Position numbers and translations under genes: made by a program
Source: Escherichia coli
GTDB taxonomy: Bacteria; Pseudomonadota; Gammaproteobacteria; Enterobacterales; Enterobacteriaceae
Length of the DNA: 64,000 bases
Assembly (NCBI RefSeq): GCF_003790525.1
Contig: NZ_CP033635.1
Direction: 5' to 3' (one strand)
Shown here: positions 2,239-34,220 of the stretch, in pieces
Numbering within the stretch: the first letter of the stretch is position 1
Layout: each line of letters starts with the position of its first letter
The notes under the pieces: generated by a model
The model's database searches: none
Told to the model about the DNA's origin: nothing
What the model saw: the letters and a program-made list of their open reading frames with translations, nothing else

Positions 2239-3441
2239 TTACAGCACCAGTGCTGCGATTGACGCAGACAGCACACTCACCAGGGTAGAGCCGTAAACCA
2301 GTTTCAGACCGAAGCGAGAAACCACGTTACCTTGCTCTTCATTCAGGCCTTTAACTGCACCTGCGATAATCCCGATTGATGAGAAGTTAGCGAAGGAAAC
2401 CAGGAACACAGAGATGATGCCTTCAGCACGCGGAGAGAGCGTGGAAGCAATTTTCTGCAGATCCATCATCGCAACGAACTCGTTGGAAACCAGTTTGGTC
2501 GCCATGATACTGCCCACTTGCAGTGCTTCACTGGAAGGAACACCCATCACCCATGCAATCGGATAGAAGATGTAGCCCAGGATGCCCTGGAAGGAGATGC
2601 TGTAGCCAAACCAGCCAGTCACGGTAGCAAACAGTGCGTTCAGCGCGGCGATCAGGGCGATAAAGCCGATCAGCATTGCGGCAACGATAATGGCAACTTT
2701 GAAACCTGCCAGAATGTATTCACCCAGCATTTCGAAGAAGCTCTGACCTTCGTGCAGGTTGGACATCTGAATGTTTTCTTCACTGGCATCAACACGGTAA
2801 GGGTTGATCAGCGACAGCACGATAAAGGTGCTGAACATGTTCAGTACCAGCGCCGCAACGACATATTTCGGCTCCAGCATGGTCATGTATGCACCAACGA
2901 TGGACATCGACACGGTGGACATCGCCGTTGCTGCCATGGTGTACATACGATTGCGGGAGATTTTGCCGAGGATATCTTTATAGGCAATAAAGTTTTCAGA
3001 CTGACCCAGAATCAGGGAGCTGACGGCGTTAAAGGATTCCAGTTTGCCCATACCGTTGACTTTGGAAAGCAGGAAACCAATTGCGCGGATAATCACTGGC
3101 AACACGCGAATGTGCTGGAGAATACCGATCAATGCAGAGATAAAGACGATTGGGCACAGCACTTTCAGAAAGAAGAATGCCAGGCCTTGATCATTCATGC
3201 TACCAAAGACGAAGTTAGTCCCTTCGTTGGCAAATCCGAGCAGTTTTTCGAACATTTCGGAGAAGCCTTTCACGAAGCCTAAACCAACGTCGGAGTTCAG
3301 GAAGAACCACGCCAGTAACACTTCGATAACAAGCAGTTGAATAACATAACGGATACGAATTTTTTTGCGGTCGCTGCTTACCAGCAGTGCGAGAATCGCA
3401 ACAACGGCAAGTGCCAGTACAAAATGAAGGACGCGGTCCAT
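2239..3441 (-). CDS. nupC: Nucleoside:H+ symporter NupC (400 aa from internal Met MDRVLHF)
   Basis: Polytopic membrane protein translation; the track ORF has a 13-codon N-terminal extension, start chosen at the Met matching the 400-aa form. Confidence 0.88.
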
Positions 3442-3708
3442 ATTTGCTCCAAATATGAGGCAGGTTAAATTTCCGTGCACATTCTATGTAACATGGTTAA
3501 GGAAAACGAGATCTGACACACACTATAATGACGTCCTGTGACAAGCTTCAAAAATAGTGAGCTGTCATACATTTCTGCTATGTTGTGTATGGAAGCTGAA
3601 AGTTATGTAAATGTGCTAACATTAAACATAATCACAACATTCAAGTCATCAATCTTTTCGTCGTCATAATTCTGGTCTATCAAAGAAATCATCACAATCC
3701 ACTTAAAT

Positions 3709-3727
3709 GAATTTGATAATCATTCTC
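3709..3727. promoter_or_regulatory. Fur box-like site in mntH promoter
   Basis: tgaatttGATAATCATTcTC matches the Fur consensus GATAATGATAATCATTATC at about 12 of 13 aligned positions, ~50 bp upstream of mntH. Confidence 0.55.
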
Positions 3728-3743
3728 GTTTGACATAGCATGA

Positions 3744-3765
3744 AACATAGCAAAGGCTATGTTTT
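3744..3765. promoter_or_regulatory. MntR operator-like palindrome in mntH promoter
   Basis: Perfect 9-bp inverted arms AAACATAGC / GCTATGTTT with 4-bp spacer, 12 bp upstream of the mntH start. Confidence 0.65.
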
Positions 3766-3767
3766 AG

Positions 3768-5015
<1,248 letters not shown>

Positions 5016-19844: not shown

Positions 19845-20765
19845 TTAAATGTATAGCGACGATTCTCCCACCGGGCGCGTTTTAAAGCGACGGTGGATCC
19901 ATAGGTACTGCTCCGGTGCGCGCATGATCTCTTTTTCGATAATCTTGTTCATATAGGCAGCGGCTTGATTTTCATCTGCCGGGTAGCCTTCCATCTCTGG
20001 GGTGATGTACAAACGATATCCGCTGTAATCCGCTTTTCTTACCATCGTTACGGTTAACATGGCTGCGCCAGAGAGACGTGAAAGGACATACGTACCATTG
20101 GTTGTGGCAACATTTTCCACCGCAAAGAACGGCGCGAAGGAGCTGCCTTTACGACCATAATCCTGATCGGGAGCAAACCATACCGCTTCACCTTTCTTCA
20201 GTGCACCGACAATGCCGCGCAGATTATTTCTGCCGATCATCGCTTTGTTAGAGCGCATGCGACCACGGGTCTGCACCCATTCCATCAGCTGATTATTATG
20301 TGGACGATAGGTGGCCATCATTGGCTGACAAAGTCCCATCACGCGGCCGCCCAGTTCCAGCGACATAAAATGGACGCCGACAACCATTACGCCGCGATTT
20401 TGCATTTGTGCGCGTTTAAGATTATCCAACCCTTCAACATCAAACCATTTACGTACGCGACTGTCGGGCCAGAACCACGCCATGCCGGTTTCTACCAGCG
20501 CCATGCCGAGTGAACGAAAGTTTTCGGCAATCATCTTCTCGCGTTCTTCCGCAGAATGCTGCGGGAAACAAAGTTCCAGGTTTTTACGGGCGATAGATTC
20601 ACGCCGTTTCAGGAATGGTCGCGCCATTGCGCCAATACGCGTGCCGAGAAAGCAGAGAACAGGATAAGGAAGTTGTACCCAAAGCCAGAGTACACCAAGC
20701 CCAAACCATGTGAGCCAGTAGCGAGGATGCAGAAACTCGCGGGAAAATTTGCATTGTGGAAACAT
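19845..20765 (-). CDS. lpxP: Lipid A palmitoleoyltransferase LpxP, 306 aa from Met MFPQCKF
   Basis: LpxL/LpxM-family late acyltransferase translation; the track ORF carries a 22-codon N-terminal extension. Confidence 0.85.
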   Translation of the reverse strand: MFPQCKFSREFLHPRYWLTWFGLGVLWLWVQLPYPVLCFLGTRIGAMARPFLKRRESIARKNLELCFPQHSAEEREKMIAENFRSLGMALVETGMAWFWPDSRVRKWFDVEGLDNLKRAQMQNRGVMVVGVHFMSLELGGRVMGLCQPMMATYRPHNNQLMEWVQTRGRMRSNKAMIGRNNLRGIVGALKKGEAVWFAPDQDYGRKGSSFAPFFAVENVATTNGTYVLSRLSGAAMLTVTMVRKADYSGYRLYITPEMEGYPADENQAAAYMNKIIEKEIMRAPEQYLWIHRRFKTRPVGESSLYI

Positions 20766-21117
20766 AGTTACCTTCTGTAGATACGAATTGTTGTATCGCA
20801 GAAGATTCCATGTCGACAGCGGTACACTCAATTGATTAGGCCATCATGTACGACAATGGTTCCTGTAAAGAGTGTAAAGACTAGTCAGGACATAACCACG
20901 AGGAGCATGAATGCGGTGGCTCTACTTTATCACTGGCTGACTGCTTTCAGCTACTGATTATTAATCGTGCAAAGTAAAAAGTTTTCCGCACGCAATAGCG
21001 TTGCATTTAACGTGCTGTTTTCATTGATGCTTAGCAAAAATTGCCAGAGGTTAAGGATTGTCTTACTATTAAAGTGACTGAAGTTACAGGTTTTTTAGCG
21101 CGGCAGGAGGTTGAGCT

Positions 21118-21360
21118 ATGATTTATTTATGGATGTTTCTCGCCCTGTGTATTGTCTGCGTAAGCGGATACATCGGTCAGGTCCTGAACGTGGTCTCGGC
21201 GGTCTCTTCTTTCTTCGGCATGGTGATCCTCGCTGCACTCATTTACTACTTCACCATGTGGTTAACTGGCGGTAATGAACTAGTGACGGGGATATTTATG
21301 TTTCTTGCCCCGGCTTGTGGCTTGATGATTCGCTTTATGGTGGGGTATGGCAGGCGCTAG
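21118..21360 (+). CDS. yfdY: Small membrane protein YfdY, 80 aa
   Basis: Two predicted TM helices; position between lpxP and ypdI. Confidence 0.7.
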   Translation: MIYLWMFLALCIVCVSGYIGQVLNVVSAVSSFFGMVILAALIYYFTMWLTGGNELVTGIFMFLAPACGLMIRFMVGYGRR

Positions 21361-21436
21361 TGGGTCAGGATGGTTCATTTGGGCAGGTGTTCACATCAGC
21401 ATCAGGCATGATTGTTCACCTGCCATGTGACAGACG

Positions 21437-21712
21437 CTATCGCACAGGATGGATAAGATAATTCGCCTTTGTCGGAAAAGGGGGCGGAATTTCATCTGTG
21501 AGGTTTAATGGTGGCGCATCTTCTCTCATTTTTAACAAAATCGCCTGTGATGGCTGAAATTTTGTAGAATGAGTTGTCGTCATCATTGACGTTTTTTCTG
21601 TCTCTTTATAGCTCGCCTCACTACCACCACCAGAAATAGAAAATGCAAAAACATTGCATGCCATAATAGAGACCAATAAAAATAAGCTAAAAAGCATTAA
21701 GTTTACTTTCAT
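21437..21712 (-). CDS. ypdI: Small lipoprotein YpdI, 91 aa
   Basis: Signal peptide with lipobox-like IMAC; position between yfdY and yfdX. Confidence 0.7.
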   Translation of the reverse strand: MKVNLMLFSLFLLVSIMACNVFAFSISGGGSEASYKETEKTSMMTTTHSTKFQPSQAILLKMREDAPPLNLTDEIPPPFPTKANYLIHPVR

Positions 21713-21854
21713 AGAAAGTTATCCTGAAAATGGTTCACTGAAAACCTACGACGTTATTGCTGTATTTACATATAATTAATCAGTATTTACATCGATATAA
21801 TAAATGACATCTCTTTTTGGTATATAAGAATAGTTCTCTGTGACAGGAAGCATA

Positions 21855-21872
21855 TTCCTACAACTGTAAGAC
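21855..21872. promoter_or_regulatory. EvgA box-like 18-bp inverted repeat upstream of yfdX
   Basis: TTCCTACA-AC-TGTAAGAC matches TTCYTACA-N2-TGTARGAA at 17 of 18 positions; a weaker second copy lies at 21893..21910. Confidence 0.6.
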
Positions 21873-22007
21873 TAAATGCCGCTTTGCGATAATAACTACA
21901 GTTGTAAGATAACCCTTTCAAAATGTCCGTTGCTCTCTGATTTCTCATTTCATGCTCACCCAATATGATGGCGGCGTTTTCTAAAACTGTTAAAGAATGA
22001 GGTAAGT

Positions 22008-22631
22008 ATGAAACGTTTAATTATGGCTACGATGGTCACAGCAGTTCTGGCATCTTCAACTGTATGGGCTGCTGATAATGCACCGGTAGCGGCACAACAG
22101 CAAACTCAGCAAGTTCAGCAAACGGCAGCAGCAGAGCGTATCTCTGAACAAGGTTTATATGCGATGCGTGACGTGCAGGTAGCGCGCCTGGCTCTGTTTC
22201 ATGGCGATCCGGAAAAGGCAAAAGAACTGACCAATGAAGCTTCCGCTTTGTTGTCAGATGACAGTACCGAATGGGCAAAGTTCGCAAAGCCAGGTAAAAA
22301 GACCAATGTCAATGATGACCAATATATTGTCATTAATGCATCTGTCGGAATTTCTGAGAGTTATGTAGCGACACCTGAAAAAGAAGCCGCGATAAAAATT
22401 GCCAACGAAAAAATGGCGAAAGGGGATAAAAAGGGCGCAATGGAAGAGCTTCGCCTGGCCGGTGTTGGTGTAATGGAAAACCAATATCTGATGCCGCTTA
22501 AACAGACTCGTAATGCACTTGCTGATGCGCAGAAACTGCTTGATAAAAAGCAATACTACGAGGCAAACCTGGCGCTTAAAGGTGCGGAAGATGGAATCAT
22601 CGTCGATAGCGAAGCACTGTTTGTGAACTAA
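22008..22631 (+). CDS. yfdX: Periplasmic protein YfdX, 207 aa
   Basis: Signal peptide [21 protein letters not shown]; first gene of the EvgA-regulated oxalate cluster. Confidence 0.82.
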
Positions 22632-22874
22632 AGCTGACAGGCAATATATTGAGGTAAAGGATTTTACTCCCTCCAGCCGACAATTTTTTATGGCCACAAT
22701 ACGACAGGTTGTGGCCATAAAATTATTTGGCGCTCGCGGTTCTATAAACTCGAATTTTATCTTCCTCAAAGTAAACCGCAATAATCCCGTGTTATCACAA
22801 ATCATTTATTATGTTATGTTTTATGGTACGCTTTAAAAAGCGTAATCATACCCTTACTTGTAAATCACTGGCGC

Positions 22875-22892
22875 TTCTTACAGTTGTAAGAA
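22875..22892. promoter_or_regulatory. EvgA box (perfect 18-bp palindrome) between yfdX and frc
   Basis: TTCTTACA-GT-TGTAAGAA is a perfect match to the EvgA consensus inverted repeat. Confidence 0.65.
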
Positions 22893-23142
22893 TAACATCA
22901 CAAATGTCGCGGCTCTCTCTGATTACCGCGAGCCAATATTTATCATATTCTTCTTTTCGTCCTCACTACTTACCATGCAGAAAGGAATTGGAAGTAGCGA
23001 TGAAATGATTTTCAGTACTTGATACAGGAATTTAAAAATATCGAGTGCAGCTACGACGATATTTTGCGGATTATTTATAGAGGCGTTATGTCTTAAATAA
23101 ACGCTAAATTAACACATATTTAATTAACTAATAGGTATTGCT

Positions 23143-24393
23143 ATGTCAACTCCACTTCAAGGAATTAAAGTTCTCGATTTCACCGGTGTGCAATCTGGCC
23201 CATCTTGTACTCAAATGCTGGCCTGGTTTGGCGCTGACGTCATTAAAATTGAACGTCCCGGCGTTGGTGACGTAACGCGTCACCAGCTGCGAGATATTCC
23301 TGATATCGATGCGCTTTACTTCACCATGCTTAACAGTAACAAACGTTCTATTGAATTAAATACCAAAACAGCGGAAGGCAAAGAGGTAATGGAAAAGCTG
23401 ATCCGCGAAGCTGATATCTTAGTCGAGAACTTTCATCCTGGGGCCATTGATCACATGGGCTTCACCTGGGAGCATATTCAAGAAATCAATCCACGTCTGA
23501 TTTTTGGTTCGATCAAAGGGTTTGATGAGTGTTCGCCTTATGTGAATGTAAAAGCCTATGAAAACGTTGCTCAGGCAGCGGGTGGCGCGGCATCCACTAC
23601 GGGTTTTTGGGACGGTCCGCCGCTGGTAAGCGCTGCAGCGTTGGGTGACAGCAACACCGGAATGCATTTACTGATCGGTTTACTTGCTGCTTTGCTGCAT
23701 CGCGAAAAAACGGGGCGTGGGCAACGAGTCACCATGTCAATGCAGGATGCCGTATTGAACCTTTGCCGCGTGAAATTACGCGACCAGCAGCGTCTCGATA
23801 AATTGGGTTATCTGGAAGAATACCCGCAGTATCCGAATGGCACATTTGGTGATGCAGTTCCCCGCGGAGGTAATGCGGGTGGTGGCGGTCAGCCTGGCTG
23901 GATCCTGAAATGTAAAGGCTGGGAAACCGATCCTAATGCCTATATTTATTTCACTATTCAGGAGCAAAACTGGGAAAACACCTGTAAAGCTATCGGCAAA
24001 CCAGAATGGATTACCGATCCGGCATACAGTACAGCCCATGCCCGACAGCCACATATTTTCGATATTTTTGCTGAAATCGAAAAATACACTGTCACTATTG
24101 ATAAACATGAAGCTGTGGCCTATTTGACTCAGTTTGATATTCCTTGTGCACCGGTTTTAAGTATGAAAGAAATTTCACTTGATCCCTCTTTGCGCCAAAG
24201 TGGCAGTGTTGTCGAAGTGGAACAACCGTTGCGTGGAAAATATCTGACAGTTGGTTGTCCAATGAAATTCTCTGCCTTTACGCCGGATATTAAAGCTGCG
24301 CCGCTATTAGGTGAACATACCGCTGCTGTATTGCAGGAGCTGGGTTATAGCGACGATGAAATTGCTGCAATGAAGCAAAACCACGCCATCTGA
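23143..24393 (+). CDS. frc: Formyl-CoA:oxalate CoA-transferase, 416 aa
   Basis: Family III CoA-transferase translation; paired with oxc downstream. Confidence 0.9.
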
Positions 24394-24446
24394 TATTAAC
24401 GGGGGCTTCTGGCTCCCAATTTATAAAAATTTCGAGGTTATTAATC

Positions 24447-26141
24447 ATGTCAGATCAACTTCAAATGACAGATGGTATGCATATCATCGTTGAAGCATTA
24501 AAACAGAATAATATTGACACTATTTATGGTGTTGTAGGTATTCCTGTGACGGATATGGCACGCCATGCCCAGGCGGAAGGCATTCGTTATATTGGTTTTC
24601 GTCATGAGCAGTCGGCAGGCTATGCCGCTGCGGCAAGCGGTTTTCTTACCCAAAAACCAGGGATCTGCCTGACAGTGTCTGCGCCAGGATTCCTCAATGG
24701 TTTGACCGCATTGGCCAACGCAACGGTAAATGGTTTTCCGATGATCATGATTAGCGGCTCCAGCGACCGCGCGATCGTCGACCTACAGCAAGGTGATTAT
24801 GAAGAGCTGGACCAAATGAATGCGGCAAAACCGTATGCCAAAGCAGCATTCCGCGTTAATCAGCCGCAGGATCTTGGCATTGCATTGGCACGCGCTATCC
24901 GGGTCTCAGTATCGGGTCGCCCTGGCGGAGTTTATCTTGATTTGCCAGCAAATGTCCTGGCCGCGACGATGGAAAAAGACGAAGCGTTAACCACGATTGT
25001 AAAAGTTGAAAATCCGTCGCCAGCATTATTGCCATGCCCGAAGTCAGTCGCTAGCGCAATTTCGCTTTTAGCAAAAGCTGAACGACCATTAGTTATCCTT
25101 GGCAAAGGCGCGGCGTATTCACAAGCTGATGAACAGCTTCGTGAATTTATTGAAAGTGCCCAGATTCCATTCCTGCCAATGTCTATGGCGAAAGGGATCC
25201 TGGAAGATACACATCCACTTTCTGCGGCAACTGCGCGTTCGTTTGCCCTGGCAAATGCTGACGTTGTCATGCTTGTTGGTGCACGACTGAATTGGTTACT
25301 GGCACACGGTAAAAAAGGATGGGCGGCAGATACACAGTTTATTCAACTGGATATTGAACCGCAGGAAATTGACAGCAACCGCCCCATTGCTGTGCCAGTC
25401 GTTGGCGATATTGCATCCAGTATGCAAGGTATGCTGGCAGAACTGAAACAAAACACATTTACGACTCCACTGGTATGGCGCGATATTTTAAATATCCACA
25501 AGCAGCAAAATGCACAAAAAATGCATGAAAAGTTAAGTACAGATACCCAACCATTAAATTACTTTAATGCATTGAGTGCCGTGCGCGATGTTTTGCGCGA
25601 GAACCAGGATATTTATTTAGTTAATGAAGGGGCAAATACCCTGGATAATGCACGAAATATTATTGATATGTATAAACCACGTCGTCGTCTGGATTGTGGC
25701 ACCTGGGGTGTCATGGGCATCGGTATGGGCTATGCCATCGGTGCTAGCGTGACCTCTGGTTCTCCGGTTGTCGCCATTGAAGGTGATAGTGCTTTTGGTT
25801 TCAGTGGGATGGAGATTGAAACGATTTGTCGATATAACCTGCCGGTGACGATCGTTATTTTTAATAATGGCGGCATCTACAGAGGAGACGGTGTTGATCT
25901 CAGTGGCGCTGGTGCACCATCACCAACAGATCTGTTGCACCATGCAAGGTATGACAAATTAATGGATGCGTTTCGTGGCGTTGGCTATAACGTCACCACG
26001 ACAGATGAACTTCGTCATGCTTTAACCACCGGTATTCAGTCGCGCAAACCGACCATTATTAATGTGGTCATCGACCCTGCAGCAGGAACTGAAAGTGGCC
26101 ATATTACCAAACTTAACCCAAAACAAGTCGCTGGTAATTAA
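24447..26141 (+). CDS. oxc: Oxalyl-CoA decarboxylase (ThDP-dependent), 564 aa
   Basis: Thiamine-diphosphate enzyme translation including the [14 protein letters not shown] cofactor-binding motif. Confidence 0.9.
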
Positions 26142-26209
26142 ATACTGACATCGTCTCCTCTTGCCAACTCATTATCGATGGTGAGGGGACCCTTATCGGA
26201 AATACTATT

Positions 26210-27154
26210 ATGCTAACATTTTTTATTGGCGATTTATTGCCTATTATCGTAATCATGCTGTTGGGTTATTTTAGCGGCAGACGAGAAACTTTTTCAGAAG
26301 ATCAAGCCCGGGCATTTAATAAACTGGTATTAAACTACGCTCTTCCTGCGGCCCTATTTGTTTCTATTACCCGGGCAAACAGGGAAATGATTTTTGCGGA
26401 CACTCGCCTGACCCTTGTATCACTTGTGGTTATTGTCGGATGTTTCTTTTTCTCCTGGTTTGGTTGCTACAAATTTTTTAAACGTACCCATGCAGAAGCA
26501 GCAGTATGTGCATTAATTGCAGGTTCACCTACCATCGGATTCCTGGGGTTTGCAGTTCTCGACCCTATTTATGGTGATTCCGTATCAACAGGTTTAGTGG
26601 TAGCAATTATTTCTATTATTGTTAACGCAATTACTATTCCTATTGGTCTGTATTTGTTGAATCCTTCCTCAGGAGCGGATGGTAAGAAGAATAGCAATCT
26701 GAGCGCATTAATTTCTGCGGCAAAGGAGCCAGTAGTATGGGCACCTGTTCTGGCAACGATCCTGGTGTTGGTTGGGGTAAAAATTCCGGCAGCATGGGAC
26801 CCAACCTTTAATCTGATTGCGAAGGCTAACTCAGGGGTAGCGGTATTCGCTGCGGGGTTGACTCTGGCTGCACATAAATTCGAGTTCAGTGCCGAAATTG
26901 CTTATAACACCTTCCTGAAGCTGATTCTGATGCCACTGGCGCTGCTTCTCGTGGGTATGGCATGTCATTTGAACAGCGAACATTTGCAGATGATGGTACT
27001 GGCAGGCGCCTTACCGCCGGCATTCTCCGGAATCATTATTGCCAGCCGGTTTAATGTCTATACCCGCACTGGTACAGCATCATTGGCTGTGAGCGTACTG
27101 GGCTTTGTCGTCACGGCTCCCTTGTGGATTTATGTCAGTCGACTGGTTTCATAA
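26210..27154 (+). CDS. yfdV: AEC-family transporter YfdV, 314 aa
   Basis: Multi-TM translation in the frc-oxc cluster. Confidence 0.82.
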
Positions 27155-27227
27155 TTAATCATGTTATTGATTTTACATAAATGCCGAAGTGTCTTTTCAC
27201 CTTCGGCTTTTTTCAAGGCATAAGCAA

Positions 27228-28373
27228 ATGACAAATAATGAAAGCAAAGGGCCGTTTGAAGGCTTATTAGTTATCGATATGACGCATGTCCTTAATGGGC
27301 CTTTCGGAACTCAACTTCTTTGTAATATGGGCGCAAGGGTAATTAAAGTTGAGCCGCCAGGTCATGGTGATGATACCCGCACATTTGGTCCCTATGTGGA
27401 TGGACAGTCACTCTATTACAGTTTTATTAATCATGGCAAAGAGAGTGTGGTTCTTGATTTAAAGAATGATCACGATAAAAGTATATTTATAAATATGCTT
27501 AAACAAGCTGATGTATTAGCTGAGAATTTTCGCCCAGGTACAATGGAAAAACTGGGGTTTTCATGGGAAAGGTTACAAGAAATCAACCCGCGCCTTATAT
27601 ATGCTTCATCGTCAGGTTTCGGACATACCGGTCCGCTAAAAGATGCTCCTGCCTACGATACCATCATTCAGGCAATGAGCGGGATAATGATGGAAACAGG
27701 ATACCCTGATGCTCCGCCAGTGCGCGTTGGTACCTCTCTTGCGGATCTATGTGGTGGTGTTTATTTATTCAGCGGAATAGTGAGTGCACTTTATGGCCGC
27801 GAAAAGAGCCAGAGAGGTGCGCATGTCGATATAGCGATGTTTGATGCCACGCTGAGTTTTCTGGAGCATGGACTGATGGCATATATCGCGACTGGGAAGT
27901 CACCACAACGCCTGGGAAATCGCCATCCCTACATGGCACCTTTTGATGTTTTTGATACTCAGGATAAGCCGATTACAATTTGTTGTGGTAATGACAAGCT
28001 TTTTTCTGCGTTATGCCAGGCACTGGAGCTTACAGAACTGGTTAATGATCCCCGATTTAGCAGCAATATTTTACGCGTACAAAACCAGGCTATTCTTAAA
28101 CAATATATTGAGCGAACGTTAAAAACGCAGGCAGCTGAAGTTTGGTTAGCCAGAATACATGAAGTTGGTGTACCCGTCGCGCCGTTATTAAGTGTGGCTG
28201 AGGCCATTAATTTGCCACAAACTCAGGCGAGAAATATGTTGATTGAAGCCGGAGGAATAATGATGCCAGGTAATCCGATAAAAATCAGCGGCTGCGCGGA
28301 CCCGCATGTTATGCCGGGAGCGGCAACGCTCGACCAGCATGGGGAACAAATTCGCCAGGAGTTCTCATCATAA
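27228..28373 (+). CDS. yfdE: Acetyl-CoA:oxalate CoA-transferase YfdE, 381 aa from Met MTNNESKG
   Basis: Paralogue of frc (family III CoA-transferase); the track ORF has a 13-codon upstream extension. Confidence 0.85.
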   Translation: MTNNESKGPFEGLLVIDMTHVLNGPFGTQLLCNMGARVIKVEPPGHGDDTRTFGPYVDGQSLYYSFINHGKESVVLDLKNDHDKSIFINMLKQADVLAENFRPGTMEKLGFSWERLQEINPRLIYASSSGFGHTGPLKDAPAYDTIIQAMSGIMMETGYPDAPPVRVGTSLADLCGGVYLFSGIVSALYGREKSQRGAHVDIAMFDATLSFLEHGLMAYIATGKSPQRLGNRHPYMAPFDVFDTQDKPITICCGNDKLFSALCQALELTELVNDPRFSSNILRVQNQAILKQYIERTLKTQAAEVWLARIHEVGVPVAPLLSVAEAINLPQTQARNMLIEAGGIMMPGNPIKISGCADPHVMPGAATLDQHGEQIRQEFSS

Positions 28374-28428
28374 ATGTAAGATGTGCTGGTAAATAGCTCC
28401 CACATTAGAACATTGTGGGAGCCGCAAT

Positions 28429-31400
28429 TTAGTCATTTTTCTGACAGAAAACAGCAATCTCCTGGTCCAGCTCTGCAATGTGTTCTTTTACAGAGTTCAG
28501 CAACTGAAGAATTTCAGGCTTACTGTCATCTGAAACAGGTGTTATTTCTAACTGATGGCTAATATTAATCAACTTTTGCAAATTCAGGATGTTAGCCGCA
28601 CCGTGGATGCGATGAATACACTGATGGAAAGTTCTGTTATCGCCAGCTTCTAGTGCATGAAACGCAGCGGGTAGATCTTTATGCGTTTCATGCTGGAAAG
28701 TCATGAGAATCTCCTGCATCAGTTGTAGATCATTCGCCGTATTATTCTTCAGGGCCTCGATATCAAGGTGGCGATACTGAGGTGCAATATGCGCAACCTG
28801 GTGTAACTGACTTAAATGTGTTTTCAGTACATCCAGAGTCAACGGTTTGAACAAACATAAGTTCATGCCGCAATTTAACCCTTTTTCACGTTCGTTAGCC
28901 TGTGCGTTGGCTGTAAGCCCCCAGATGGGTAAGGAAGAATTTTGCTCACGGAGTTTGCGAGTCAACTCAAAACCATCCATATTCGGCATATTTACGTCAG
29001 TAATAAGCAGATCATAATGTTGCATACTGATTTTGTGTAGCGCTTGCACACCATCAGTGGCTTCATCAACATCATATCCTAATAGATTTAGCTGGCGTTT
29101 GAGTAATAGCCTGTTGGTCGGATGATCATCCGCGATTAATATGCTCAACTTTTCAGGTAGTGTGATAGGTTGTTCTGCTTTTGTCTCTATAGCCGCCACT
29201 TGTTGGGTAATTTCTACCGGGATTGTGATCGTAAATATCGTTCCTATGCCTGGATGACTTTCTAATGACAAATCGCCCTGCATGTTTTTTATTAATTCTT
29301 TGCAGATCATTAAGCCTAAACCAGAACCTGTTTGCTGACGACCTGCACTTGTTTGGCTATAGCGTTTAAACAGTTGTTGTTGTTCTTCCTGCGATAATCC
29401 ACTTCCAGAATCCATAATCGTCATTTTGATAACAGCGTGGTTGTCATCAATGTGACCCAGGGAGGTCGTAATTTTTACTGCTCCCTCGGTAGTAAATTTG
29501 AGAGCATTACTCAGTAAATTAGATAAGACCTGCTTAAACGCCTGAGGGTCGATCTTAACCAGGTAGCGTTCAGGAAACGTACTGCTGCAACTTAATGCGA
29601 TGGATTTGCTTGCAGCAATCGCACCGAAAGAGTGACAAGTGTTCTGGACTAAAGTAGGGATATCGACCCATTGTGGTTGAAGTTGATAGTTACCCGATTC
29701 AATTTTGTCGACATCAAGGATTTCACCAATTAAGCCGAGGAGTGATTGTCCGGTGGCGTAGGCAAGTGAAATCGCCTCCACCCGTTGCTCCTTGCTAAGA
29801 CCAGAACCCGACAGTAGTTCCAGGAAGCCCATAATGGAGCTTATTGGTGTTCTTATTTCGTGACTCATTGTTGCCAGAAACTGGCTTTTTGCGACAGTTG
29901 CATTGATCGCTTTATTTCTCTCTACTTCGAGTGCATGAATTAAATCACGCGTCTCGGTAATATCTTGCCAACCACAAATATAAACAGCATGTTCGCTTGC
30001 TGGCAGATTACATAAGGTATGCCAGTGATTAATGCATCTTTTCTCGATGCCATTATCAATTTCAAATACCTGTGTGTATATTGTTCGGTTTTCTTTCGTT
30101 TCTGCTGTGACTTCATGCGTATTAGAAAAAACATCTTTAAAGGGGGATTCACTGTTTTCTAATGGTAACATTGCACTTTTATAGTAATCAGCAGTGAAAT
30201 AATGTTCAAATGCACTATTGTGACTAATGACATTACCTTGCCAGTTTACAACATAAGTTGGATTCGGTAAGGAGTCCGAGAGTGCTTTCCGGAATGATAT
30301 TTGGTTTTCTAAATCACCCTGAATAACTTTACGACGACGAACTGAGCGTAACAGGTAGAATCCCCATAAAAGGCTACTGCCAACTAATAAAACGGATAAT
30401 GTCGTAACAATATAAAATTGCTCGCTATAGAGGTCCCATGTATCAATGGTCACATTGGGCATTTTAATCCATTTTTCGGTCAGGCGCAGAACTTCGCTTG
30501 GGGGAATTGCATTCAGTGCTTTATTAATAATATCCTTAAGTTCCGGTTCTCCGCGAGGAAAAGCGAACGAAAGTGATGCATTCTGAACGCCGGGAATAAG
30601 AAAATGATAAAGTTCATTAGGATAGTAATGGTCGATCATGTAACGCGAATTTAACTGTGTCGCGACCAGAGCATCAAGTTCACCTTCCTTGACCTTGTGA
30701 AATGCAGCGCTGGCGTTATCGACTTTTATCCACTCTACCTCCGGATACATCTCTTTTAATTGCGAATGAAGCTCATAATAATATGGAATGGCAACTTTCA
30801 TTCCTTTTTTTAATGTTTGTTCACTGTCAGGCGCTTTTTGCATGACAAAAACGTAAGGCGTTGTTATGAAGGCTTCAGCAAATGAAACATTATTTTCTCG
30901 ATCTTCACTATAAATAGCGGCGGGCAATATATCCCATCCACCGGGGTTAAGCTGTGTCCCCGCATGAATATTGTGTGAAACGGTGATCGGAGAAAAATTT
31001 AAACCTGTTTGCAAGGTAATAATATTAAGAATATCACCCATCACGCCCCGAACTGAGCCAGTTTCATCTGTCATAGAATAGGGTGGCGAGTAAGGATTTT
31101 CCAGCACCTTTAAATCGGGATGCTGCTTAATCCACTGTTTTTCATGTTCAGTGAGTTCTAATGGTTTGTTCAGAAAGGCCAGGTTTCCTGTATCAAGCCA
31201 ATTTTGTGATACTTCATAGCGAACTTCATTTGTTAAAGCATCAACAAATCGATTGAGTACTTCATTAAGAACGATTGAATCTTTTCTGGTTAATAAAAAG
31301 TTATATTGACGCGGTGAGTTATAATACTTCACTACATTTAAGGAGTGAGTAAAATAACGGGAAATCATACTGCTGGTAATGATGTTACTACCAATAAAGT

Positions 31401-32022
31401 AATCATTCTGTCCGGCTGAGACGGATGCTAATGCCTGATATAAATTTGTAAAAGAGATAATTGTTGCTTTTGGAAATGATTGATGAATTACCTCGTCTGG
31501 GGGATAATTTGCTACTCGAGCAATATTTACTGGTTTTGATGAGGTAAGCGGTCGCATTGAATCGTGAAGGGTAGTGACCAGCGCCGGAAAGGTAATTATC
31601 AGAGGATTAGTTGCAGCAATGTCATCATTAAGAGGCGGCGAAGCAACTAAATGTGATAACACTATATCAACTTCACCGTCTTCCAGCGCGTCCATTGCTT
31701 TTTGATGATCTGCGTATTCCCGGAGTGTTAATTTGATATTTAACGCTCTTTTTAAAAGATTTAAATAATCAGCATTAATACCACGAATCCGTTGCTGCGA
31801 ATCGGTATGCAACAACGTAGCTGTTTGGGACTTGTGTACTGCAATCACAAGATTTTTTTTGCTCGCTAGCCAACGTAATTCCTTGTTGCTCAGACGTAGT
31901 GGATCAAGTGTGACACGGTTGTTACTACTGATGCCACGATATTCGATGTAATCTCCGTCTGCGAAACTTATGGTCGACCAAAGACCACAACAGAGAAGAA
32001 AAATATAGGGTAAAAACTTCAT
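28429..32022 (-). CDS. evgS: Hybrid sensor histidine kinase EvgS, 1197 aa
   Basis: Signal peptide, tandem periplasmic solute-binding-like domains, TM, HisKA/ATPase, receiver and HPt domains. Confidence 0.92.
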   Translation of the reverse strand: MKFLPYIFLLCCGLWSTISFADGDYIEYRGISSNNRVTLDPLRLSNKELRWLASKKNLVIAVHKSQTATLLHTDSQQRIRGINADYLNLLKRALNIKLTLREYADHQKAMDALEDGEVDIVLSHLVASPPLNDDIAATNPLIITFPALVTTLHDSMRPLTSSKPVNIARVANYPPDEVIHQSFPKATIISFTNLYQALASVSAGQNDYFIGSNIITSSMISRYFTHSLNVVKYYNSPRQYNFLLTRKDSIVLNEVLNRFVDALTNEVRYEVSQNWLDTGNLAFLNKPLELTEHEKQWIKQHPDLKVLENPYSPPYSMTDETGSVRGVMGDILNIITLQTGLNFSPITVSHNIHAGTQLNPGGWDILPAAIYSEDRENNVSFAEAFITTPYVFVMQKAPDSEQTLKKGMKVAIPYYYELHSQLKEMYPEVEWIKVDNASAAFHKVKEGELDALVATQLNSRYMIDHYYPNELYHFLIPGVQNASLSFAFPRGEPELKDIINKALNAIPPSEVLRLTEKWIKMPNVTIDTWDLYSEQFYIVTTLSVLLVGSSLLWGFYLLRSVRRRKVIQGDLENQISFRKALSDSLPNPTYVVNWQGNVISHNSAFEHYFTADYYKSAMLPLENSESPFKDVFSNTHEVTAETKENRTIYTQVFEIDNGIEKRCINHWHTLCNLPASEHAVYICGWQDITETRDLIHALEVERNKAINATVAKSQFLATMSHEIRTPISSIMGFLELLSGSGLSKEQRVEAISLAYATGQSLLGLIGEILDVDKIESGNYQLQPQWVDIPTLVQNTCHSFGAIAASKSIALSCSSTFPERYLVKIDPQAFKQVLSNLLSNALKFTTEGAVKITTSLGHIDDNHAVIKMTIMDSGSGLSQEEQQQLFKRYSQTSAGRQQTGSGLGLMICKELIKNMQGDLSLESHPGIGTIFTITIPVEITQQVAAIETKAEQPITLPEKLSILIADDHPTNRLLLKRQLNLLGYDVDEATDGVQALHKISMQHYDLLITDVNMPNMDGFELTRKLREQNSSLPIWGLTANAQANEREKGLNCGMNLCLFKPLTLDVLKTHLSQLHQVAHIAPQYRHLDIEALKNNTANDLQLMQEILMTFQHETHKDLPAAFHALEAGDNRTFHQCIHRIHGAANILNLQKLINISHQLEITPVSDDSKPEILQLLNSVKEHIAELDQEIAVFCQKND

Positions 32023-32026
32023 GTGG

Positions 32027-32641
32027 TTAGCCGATTTTGTTACGTTGTGCGAATGTGTAAAGATCCATCAGTGATTTGCATTCTAATTTTTCCATCAAGC
32101 GACTTTTATACGTGCTGACAGTTTTGTTGCTGATGAACATTTTTTCAGCAATGTCATTATTATCCTTGCCATCAAGAATATACCGCATGACACTAATTTC
32201 TTGTTTCGATAAGGAGTCGAGTTTTTGCTGGTCGGACGTTAAACTTCCAACAAACCGGTTGAGAGAGAAGGGGAAATAGCAGTAGCCATTTTTTGCAGCT
32301 TCAATAGCCGCAATGATATTGTTCATGCCTTCTTTTTTACTCACGAAACCATTAGCGCCAGCATCAGCACAATGTTTCCCGTAAAAATGGTCATTTTTAG
32401 CGGAGACAATAATAATAATTCCGCTATATTGGCGCTTTCTCAGCGTTTCTAACACCTGGATACCGTTAACTCCGGGGATATCGACATCAATGATGACGAT
32501 ATCAGGCTTAAGTGTTTCCACCCGCTGAACGGCACTTCCGCCTTCAGTCAACTCTGCTAAGATTTCAATATCGTTTTTGATCAATAAATTACGAATTGCT
32601 GCGATAGCAAGAGGATGGTCATCAATAATTATTGCGTTCAT
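32027..32641 (-). CDS. evgA: Response regulator EvgA (receiver + LuxR-type HTH), 204 aa
   Basis: Receiver domain plus C-terminal LuxR/FixJ HTH; immediately upstream of evgS on the same strand. Confidence 0.92.
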   Translation of the reverse strand: MNAIIIDDHPLAIAAIRNLLIKNDIEILAELTEGGSAVQRVETLKPDIVIIDVDIPGVNGIQVLETLRKRQYSGIIIIVSAKNDHFYGKHCADAGANGFVSKKEGMNNIIAAIEAAKNGYCYFPFSLNRFVGSLTSDQQKLDSLSKQEISVMRYILDGKDNNDIAEKMFISNKTVSTYKSRLMEKLECKSLMDLYTFAQRNKIG

Positions 32642-32865
32642 AGATTATTCCCTTTGCAATGAAGCATCTCCCTTCTCCCTGTAGTAATACAGACATAAGG
32701 CATCATCTCATTTTCTCAATAAAAATAAGAAAATTTGAGCTTCCTTTAAGATAATTCGACAAGTATACCATATAAATAGTCGGCATATATGAAATGTCAA
32801 CAATAAAATCAGGGATTGTACCGATGATTTATAGTTTCACATTAGCACTATAAGTCTTCTCACTA

Positions 32866-32883
32866 ATCCTACAGGCGTAAGAA
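32866..32883. promoter_or_regulatory. EvgA box in the evgA-emrK divergent intergenic region
   Basis: ATCCTACA-GG-CGTAAGAA matches the EvgA consensus at 16 of 18 positions. Confidence 0.6.
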
Positions 32884-33056
32884 TTGTATTGCAAAAGCCA
32901 CGGTTTAGTCCTCTGTTGTTTTTTTTGCACCTCATTTAAATTAGGCCTCCAACGTTCCTGGGATAATGTGCAACACATGCACTGTGTTTGATATGAAGAA
33001 TGAATACTCTTTTCATTCAATTCATAAATTTCATCTATGCGAAATGAGAGATAAAA

Positions 33057-34220
33057 GTGGAACAGATTAATTCAAATAAAAAACATTCTGACAGAAAAAA
33101 ATATTTTGCTTTGTTAGCGGTAGTTTTATTTATTGCGTTTTCAGGTGCCTATGCCTATTGGTCAATGGAATTAGAAGACATGATTAGTACAGATGACGCC
33201 TATGTCACGGGAAATGCAGATCCAATTTCTGCACAAGTTTCAGGCAGCGTCACTGTCGTTAATCATAAAGATACGAACTACGTTCGACAGGGTGACATTT
33301 TAGTCTCACTGGATAAGACTGATGCCACTATCGCACTCAATAAAGCTAAAAATAATCTGGCCAATATTGTTCGGCAAACGAATAAACTGTACTTACAGGA
33401 TAAACAATACAGTGCCGAAGTCGCTTCAGCTCGTATTCAGTATCAACAATCTTTAGAAGATTATAACCGTCGTGTACCTTTAGCGAAGCAGGGGGTTATT
33501 TCAAAAGAAACGCTGGAGCATACCAAAGATACGTTAATAAGTAGCAAAGCGGCATTGAATGCTGCTATTCAGGCTTATAAAGCGAATAAAGCTTTAGTAA
33601 TGAACACACCATTAAACCGTCAGCCACAAGTCGTTGAAGCGGCGGATGCAACCAAAGAAGCCTGGTTGGCGCTTAAACGTACGGATATTAAGAGTCCGGT
33701 TACCGGCTATATTGCCCAGCGAAGTGTTCAGGTCGGCGAAACAGTGAGTCCCGGACAATCGTTAATGGCTGTCGTACCGGCACGTCAAATGTGGGTTAAT
33801 GCCAACTTTAAAGAAACACAACTCACGGATGTGCGGATTGGTCAATCGGTCAATATTATTAGCGATCTTTATGGTGAAAATGTTGTGTTTCATGGTCGGG
33901 TGACAGGGATCAATATGGGAACCGGCAATGCGTTCTCCTTATTACCTGCACAAAATGCGACAGGGAATTGGATCAAAATCGTTCAGCGTGTACCGGTTGA
34001 GGTTTCTCTTGATCCAAAAGAACTCATGGAACATCCCTTGCGCATTGGTTTATCGATGACTGCAACTATTGATACCAGGAACGAAGACATTGCCGATATG
34101 CCCGATCTGGCTTCAACCGTGACGTCCATGCCTGCTTATACCAGTAAGGCTTTAATTATCGATACCAGTCCGATAGAAAAAGAAATTAGCAACATTATTT
34201 CGCATAATGGACAACTTTAA
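33057..34220 (+). CDS. emrK: Multidrug efflux membrane-fusion protein EmrK (EmrA paralogue), 387 aa
   Basis: HlyD-family periplasmic adaptor translation with single N-terminal TM. Confidence 0.88.
   Translation: MEQINSNKKHSDRKKYFALLAVVLFIAFSGAYAYWSMELEDMISTDDAYVTGNADPISAQVSGSVTVVNHKDTNYVRQGDILVSLDKTDATIALNKAKNNLANIVRQTNKLYLQDKQYSAEVASARIQYQQSLEDYNRRVPLAKQGVISKETLEHTKDTLISSKAALNAAIQAYKANKALVMNTPLNRQPQVVEAADATKEAWLALKRTDIKSPVTGYIAQRSVQVGETVSPGQSLMAVVPARQMWVNANFKETQLTDVRIGQSVNIISDLYGENVVFHGRVTGINMGTGNAFSLLPAQNATGNWIKIVQRVPVEVSLDPKELMEHPLRIGLSMTATIDTRNEDIADMPDLASTVTSMPAYTSKALIIDTSPIEKEISNIISHNGQL

Follow-up and report, generated by a model that had tools for sequence, protein, structure and literature searches.

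A probable mntH promoter-operator with adjacent Fur and MntR sites in Escherichia coli

Introduction

In Escherichia coli K-12, mntH is dually repressed by Fe2+-Fur and Mn2+-MntR. In the description by Patzer and Hantke, the MntR DNase I footprint reportedly covers a nearly perfect palindrome, while the Fur site was reportedly narrowed to 22 nucleotides by operator titration. For Salmonella enterica, Kehres and colleagues are said to have identified OxyR, Fur and MntR motifs in the mntH promoter, with the Fur motif over the -35 element and an inverted repeat between the -10 element and the ribosome-binding site.

Reviews assign separate MntR, Fur and OxyR sites to the E. coli mntH promoter, and the literature places the action of MntR of E. 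coli and Salmonella at an inverted repeat of this promoter. MntR boxes are described, in literature that cites Patzer and Hantke, as short inverted repeats. In RegulonDB, mntH is curated as a target of the repressors MntR and Fur and, in line with the literature, of the activator OxyR. Fur represses an mntH-lacZ fusion (Beauchene et al. 2015). A study of nine E. coli strains found mntH to be derepressed when fur was deleted and placed the gene within the 36-gene Fur core regulon (Gao et al. 2023). Finally, an information-theory model predicted a 25-bp cluster of two Fur sites at -56 of mntH (Chen et al. 2007).

The dual metal reading of the mntH promoter is, therefore, already known: the biology has been settled since 2001-2002, with dual iron and manganese repression of the MntH importer and, in addition, activation by peroxide. 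Here, we follow up a reading of the raw sequence of an E. coli locus, and the value of the exercise is one of calibration, i.e. the reading recognised two textbook operators and their target gene, with a slip of one base.

Methods

The window is the whole stretch of E. coli DNA that was analysed, 64 kb in length, and all coordinates refer to it unless K-12 coordinates are given. For the analysis of conservation, one orthologous mntH locus was taken from each of 80 species in about 25 genera of Enterobacteriaceae. Together with the window this gave 81 sequences, of which the 200 bp upstream of the mntH start codon were aligned. The 18 arm positions of the palindrome upstream of mntH were used to scan the K-12 mntS/mntR and mntP regions (7.5 kb). 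Published K-12 positions in the old U00096.2 coordinates were transferred to the window using two anchors: mntH itself, which is at 2509490..2510728 in U00096.2, and the 51-nt flank of the transcription start site (TSS) at 2510875, which is identical to window positions 3580..3630.

Results

The mntH coding sequence (3777..5015, plus strand), which encodes an Nramp-family Mn2+/H+ importer, is separated by an intergenic region of 335 bp (3442..3776) from nupC (2239..3441, minus strand). The nupC gene was taken from the RefSeq annotation of a genome identical to the window. The identity of mntH, as named in the original prediction, is borne out by the list of open reading frames, by the RefSeq annotation of 100%-identical genomes and by orthologues that are 89-99% identical in 80 species. 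The proposed Fur box and the palindrome both lie at most 68 bp upstream of the ATG at 3777, and hence inside the 70 bp that had been given for them. With a 701-bp query around the two motifs, a match was obtained in 5424 of the 5426 complete E. coli genomes, and in several the identity was 100%; the exact 77-bp allele of the window is present in only 245 of approximately 5400 complete E. coli genomes. In K-12, the flanking genes are the same and the Fur box and palindrome are identical to those in the window at every base. The differences from K-12 are an A for a G at 3733, between the two motifs, and a synonymous change in codon 2 of mntH.

Across the 81 promoters, most of the sequence upstream of mntH has diverged to 10-50% identity, and five conserved islands stand out. 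These are an OxyR-type block (3666..3702), the Fur box including TTGATA (3705..3727), TAGCAT on the plus strand with a TAnnnT pattern (3736..3741), the palindrome except for the end of its right arm (3743..3760), and the Shine-Dalgarno region GAGGCA on the plus strand (3767..3772), which is 93-100% conserved and located 5-10 nt before the ATG. Seven E. coli alleles, among them the most divergent of those sampled, have the same sequence at 3743..3764; their polymorphisms gather at 3728..3735, in the stretch that separates the Fur box from the predicted -10 element. In Trabulsiella odontotermitis TbOT1.10, the Shine-Dalgarno region just upstream of mntH is present as a 16-bp tandem duplication, TTTCAGAGGCAGAAta TTTCAGAGGCAGAAAATG.

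The classical Fur 19-mer GAATTTGATAATCATTCTC is located at 3709..3727, precisely where a Fur-box-like sequence had been proposed. It matches the Fur consensus GATAATGATAATCATTATC at 15 of 19 positions and is the sole site with at most four mismatches in the 64-kb window. It is accompanied by a 7-1-7 inverted-repeat core, TGATAATcATTCTCg, at 3714..3728 and by a weaker, overlapping 19-mer at 3715..3733. Matches of equal quality arose 0.3 times per 64 kb in dinucleotide shuffles of the whole window; when the 335-bp intergenic region was shuffled 5000 times, 0.44% of the shuffled sequences contained one. In the 81 promoters, columns 3713-3719, 3722-3724 and 3727 of the Fur box are invariant. The position -56 given by Chen et al. 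(2007) corresponds to 3721 in the window, and the weaker 19-mer at 3715..3733 is consistent with the two sites of their predicted cluster.

Published binding data place Fur on the same segment. The K-12 Fur ChIP-exo peak P75 (2510767..2510798 in U00096.2), which was assigned to mntH (Gao et al. 2023), maps to 3707..3738 and covers the proposed box. In the literature data as mapped onto the window, Fur occupancy is thus seen in K-12, and Fur-dependent mntH expression in the nine strains and in the lacZ fusion. A second K-12 peak, P76 (2511044..2511073 in the old coordinates), maps to 3432..3461, over the start codon of nupC and its leader; this peak carries no target assignment, and no obvious Fur box was seen at 3432..3461. 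A natural change within the box was observed in E. coli strain 98212, in which C is replaced by A at the centre, at the equivalent of 3721, giving GATAATAATTCTC. This position is 98% conserved across genera, and the strain may carry a natural operator variant.

The second motif is a perfect palindrome, AAACATAGC-AAAG-GCTATGTTT, with arms of 9 bp at 3743..3751 and 3756..3764 and a spacer at 3752..3755. The original prediction had the sequence and the arms right and its coordinates one base too high, at 3744..3765 instead of 3743..3764. The palindrome sits between the predicted -10 hexamer TAGCAT (3736..3741) and GAGG (3767..3770) and spans the predicted TSS at approximately 3748. Of 5000 shuffled versions of the intergenic region, 0.3% contained a palindrome with 9-bp arms and a 4-bp loop. 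Because palindromes with 9-bp arms and loops of 0-10 bp are present at about a dozen loci in the 64-kb window, such a structure is common by itself, and the significance of the one at mntH derives from its sequence and position.

The palindrome is also nearly invariant, with 3743..3760 unchanged in 80-81 of the 81 orthologous promoters from about 25 genera. More variation is seen in the right arm than in the left: at 3761, 21 sequences have G and 60 have A, and at 3763, 12 have C. Thus, the palindrome is perfect in the Escherichia/Salmonella/Citrobacter group only. The two Salmonella orthologues have the same order of elements and retain TTGATAATCATT and AAACATAGCAAAGGCTATGTTT. The AAAG spacer is invariant in 80 of 81 orthologues.

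The same core recurs at other K-12 MntR targets. In the 7.5 kb of K-12 sequence, only three matches had at least 14 of the 18 arm positions: a single one (14/18) where the rybA/mntS transcript begins and a pair (15/18 each) between yobD and mntP. All three share an ATAGC-N4-GCTAT core with the mntH palindrome. In shuffled 64-kb windows, matches of at least 14/18 arose approximately 0.5 times per 64 kb. Among these MntR sites, only that of mntH has perfect 9-bp arms, and the spacers differ, with AAAG at mntH and ACAG, TTAG and CAAA at the others. As stated in abstracts and in a curation table, mntP is activated by MntR, not repressed. A full-text literature search for the operator sequence returned only unrelated matches for AAACATAGC and none for the 16-mer CATAGCAAAGGCTATG. 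The palindrome that the MntR footprint of Patzer and Hantke reportedly covers would be the one at 3743..3764.

A promoter scan predicted a -35 hexamer TTGATA (3713..3718) and a -10 hexamer TAGCAT (3736..3741) on the plus strand, separated by 17 bp and matching the consensus at 9 of 12 positions. The -35 hexamer falls within the Fur box and is invariant in 81 of 81 sequences. In the -10 hexamer, variation is confined to the middle positions, with T3736, A3737 and T3741 the same in all sequences, as expected of a -10 element of the TAnnnT type. The spacing of 17 bp in the window is 16 bp in 62 of the 81 relatives. The TSS of this regulated mntH promoter is a predicted one. This anatomy fits what Patzer and Hantke and Kehres and colleagues are reported to have described.

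Two other promoter arrangements were considered. The pair ATCACA (3691)-18-GATAAT (3715..3720), also proposed by the scan, was discarded as a candidate for the main promoter, since its -35 element is unconserved (12-80% identity); it may serve as a minor or OxyR-dependent start. The A at 3733 that sets the window apart from K-12 creates a perfect TTGACA hexamer at 3730..3735, where K-12 has TTGGCA. This hexamer was rejected as a -35 element: no -10-like hexamer is present 16-18 bp downstream, and K-12 and most relatives have G at 3733.

Just upstream of the predicted -35 element, a block of the ATAG-N7-CTAT-N7-ATAG-N7-CTAT type at 3666..3702 is a candidate OxyR site. It matches 13 of 20 specified consensus positions in the window and 16 of 20 in the majority consensus of the 81 sequences, and it belongs to the top-scoring class of the whole 64 kb. 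Its conserved columns (3666-67, 3670-71, 3677-3690, 3697 and 3699) fall mostly on specified consensus positions. Judged by its sequence, the block is likely to be the OxyR activator site of mntH.

Experimentally mapped starts lie farther upstream. Two weak plus-strand TSSs have been assigned to mntH, with leaders of 186 nt (11 reads) and 147 nt (5 reads) (Kim et al. 2012); these correspond to 3591 and 3630 in the window, respectively, so that some transcripts read through both operators. In the TSS data of that study, the mntH entries for E. coli comprise only these two distal starts, and the text gives none for the Klebsiella orthologue.

Discussion

Based on the data reported here, we are confident in suggesting that the region upstream of mntH is its core promoter-operator, i.e. 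a sigma-70 promoter overlaid by independent Fur and MntR sites, with a conserved OxyR-type site upstream. In this model, RNA polymerase would use TTGATA (3713..3718) and TAGCAT (3736..3741) and start at approximately 3748. When iron is sufficient, Fe2+-Fur bound to 3709..3727, and onwards to about 3733, would cover the -35 hexamer and exclude RNA polymerase. When manganese is sufficient, Mn2+-MntR, a DtxR-family dimer that we infer to occupy its site in this strain, would bind to 3743..3764, immediately after the -10 hexamer and over the predicted start, and block initiation. The OxyR-type site at 3666..3702 would probably provide activation by peroxide. In other words, two independent metalloregulators would each occlude the promoter. 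The dual iron and manganese repression that had been proposed for the locus is in agreement with the reviews, with RegulonDB, with the Fur ChIP-exo data, with the core shared by other MntR targets and with the near-invariance of the palindrome. Comparison with published Fur binding also comes out in favor of the original prediction, since the K-12 peak covers the proposed box.

This design can be compared with other metal-regulated promoters. Fur promoters of the fepA, fhuA and cirA type resemble that of mntH in that a 19-bp Fur box lies over the core promoter, which at mntH is a predicted one, and in that they belong to the Fur core regulon. However, mntH encodes a manganese importer and has a second metal-specific operator 15 bp downstream. 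The MntR sites at rybA/mntS and mntP have ATAGC-N4-GCTAT in common with mntH and are identical to it at 14-15 of 18 arm positions. At mntH, AAAG is invariant even though the spacers at the other K-12 MntR sites differ, which suggests that a constraint beyond recognition of the MntR half-sites acts here. The simplest account of the spacer and of the strict left arm would be that they overlap the TSS and the first transcribed bases.

Two explanations would make the motifs incidental. By chance alone, AT-rich intergenic DNA may come to resemble regulatory sites, and Fur-like sites with 5-6 mismatches are indeed common in the window (30 sites). By contrast, the shuffle frequencies of 0.44% and 0.3%, the near-invariance across genera and the overlap with the ChIP-exo peak leave chance resemblance with a close to negligible probability. 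Alternatively, the conservation could reflect coding constraint on the small protein YpeD, whose frame runs through both motifs. In K-12, ypeD (b4819, 29 aa) is annotated at the equivalent of 3707..3796, where it shares sequence with the Fur box, the MntR palindrome and the start of mntH, and in genomes identical to the window RefSeq annotates a 14-aa open reading frame at 3740..3784 as a hypothetical protein. However, only remnants of ypeD persist in this strain (3707..3784, plus strand): the frame is cut by TGG to TGA at 3731..3733, leaving 8 codons from the ATG at 3707, and by GAA to TAA at 3782..3784, which ends the 14-codon frame beginning at 3740. Moreover, the open reading frame from the equivalent ATG varies between 0 and 50 aa across the 81 sequences, with the start codon absent in 8, and 62 of 81 carry a frameshifting 1-bp deletion that lies between the two motifs. 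Eighteen consecutive invariant bases, with all wobble positions included, are not a coding pattern either. We conclude that the ypeD frame is unconserved and that conservation acts at the level of the DNA, which makes coding constraint a highly improbable explanation.

The more serious competitor concerns the palindrome as RNA. Shi and colleagues are said to have described a riboswitch in the 5' UTR of Salmonella mntH, in which GCUAUG pairs alternatively with a duplicated CAUAGC, and here copies of CATAGC are present at 3734..3739 and 3746..3751 and GCTATG at 3756..3761. According to reviews, Mn2+ repression of Salmonella mntH persists without MntR, and the 5'-UTR riboswitch forms a Rho-independent terminator. 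The palindrome could, then, act mainly or additionally as RNA, in which a hairpin and the short U run behind it would be a Mn2+-responsive terminator or riboswitch in transcripts that start upstream of 3734. The weak TSSs at 3591 and 3630 imply that some transcripts contain the whole element, the AAAG that would form the loop is invariant, and the RNA of 3740..3768 is computed to form an 11-bp hairpin of -12.4 kcal/mol (z = -7.2). However, the hairpin energy is not independent evidence, because the transcript of any perfect palindrome will fold on itself. In 64 distinct sequences, compensatory changes were found in 0 of 9 pairs, and variation only breaks pairs, with C.A in 48/64 and A.C in 11/64. 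Nor does the alternative pairing show double changes, and the first CATAGC copy is without its C in 62 of 81 sequences. Thus, the RNA-level Mn2+ switch that has additionally been reported for the Salmonella mntH leader found no comparative support here. The conserved -35 and -10 elements predict a start at approximately 3748, inside the left arm, so that only 4 bp of the stem would be left; the promoter and terminator scan gave no terminator-like site; and Rfam families, yybP-ykoY included, had no match at E<=1 in 3400..3900. All in all, a role for the palindrome chiefly or additionally at the RNA level is unlikely, and such a layer is not needed to explain it.

A related reading, for which we see a small chance, is that in the Escherichia/Salmonella/Citrobacter group the 22-bp palindrome is bifunctional, i.e. 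an MntR operator on DNA and an RNA hairpin in the minority of transcripts with distal starts. If so, the hairpin, by pairing alternatively with the duplicated CAUAGC, would add MntR-independent control by Mn2+, and this RNA control would possibly be coupled to translation of a short upstream open reading frame that ends just inside mntH. Bifunctionality would also explain why AAAG and the left arm are stricter than recognition by MntR seems to need.

Beyond the promoter, downstream of the mntH region, the GC content falls to 35-45% across approximately 20000..44000, with a minimum of 34.9% in 40001..44000, as compared with 50-55% at 4-16 kb. This suggests that the low-GC segment is horizontally acquired DNA. 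Several long perfect palindromes are located inside it, e.g. at 43442..43466 and 42052..42075.
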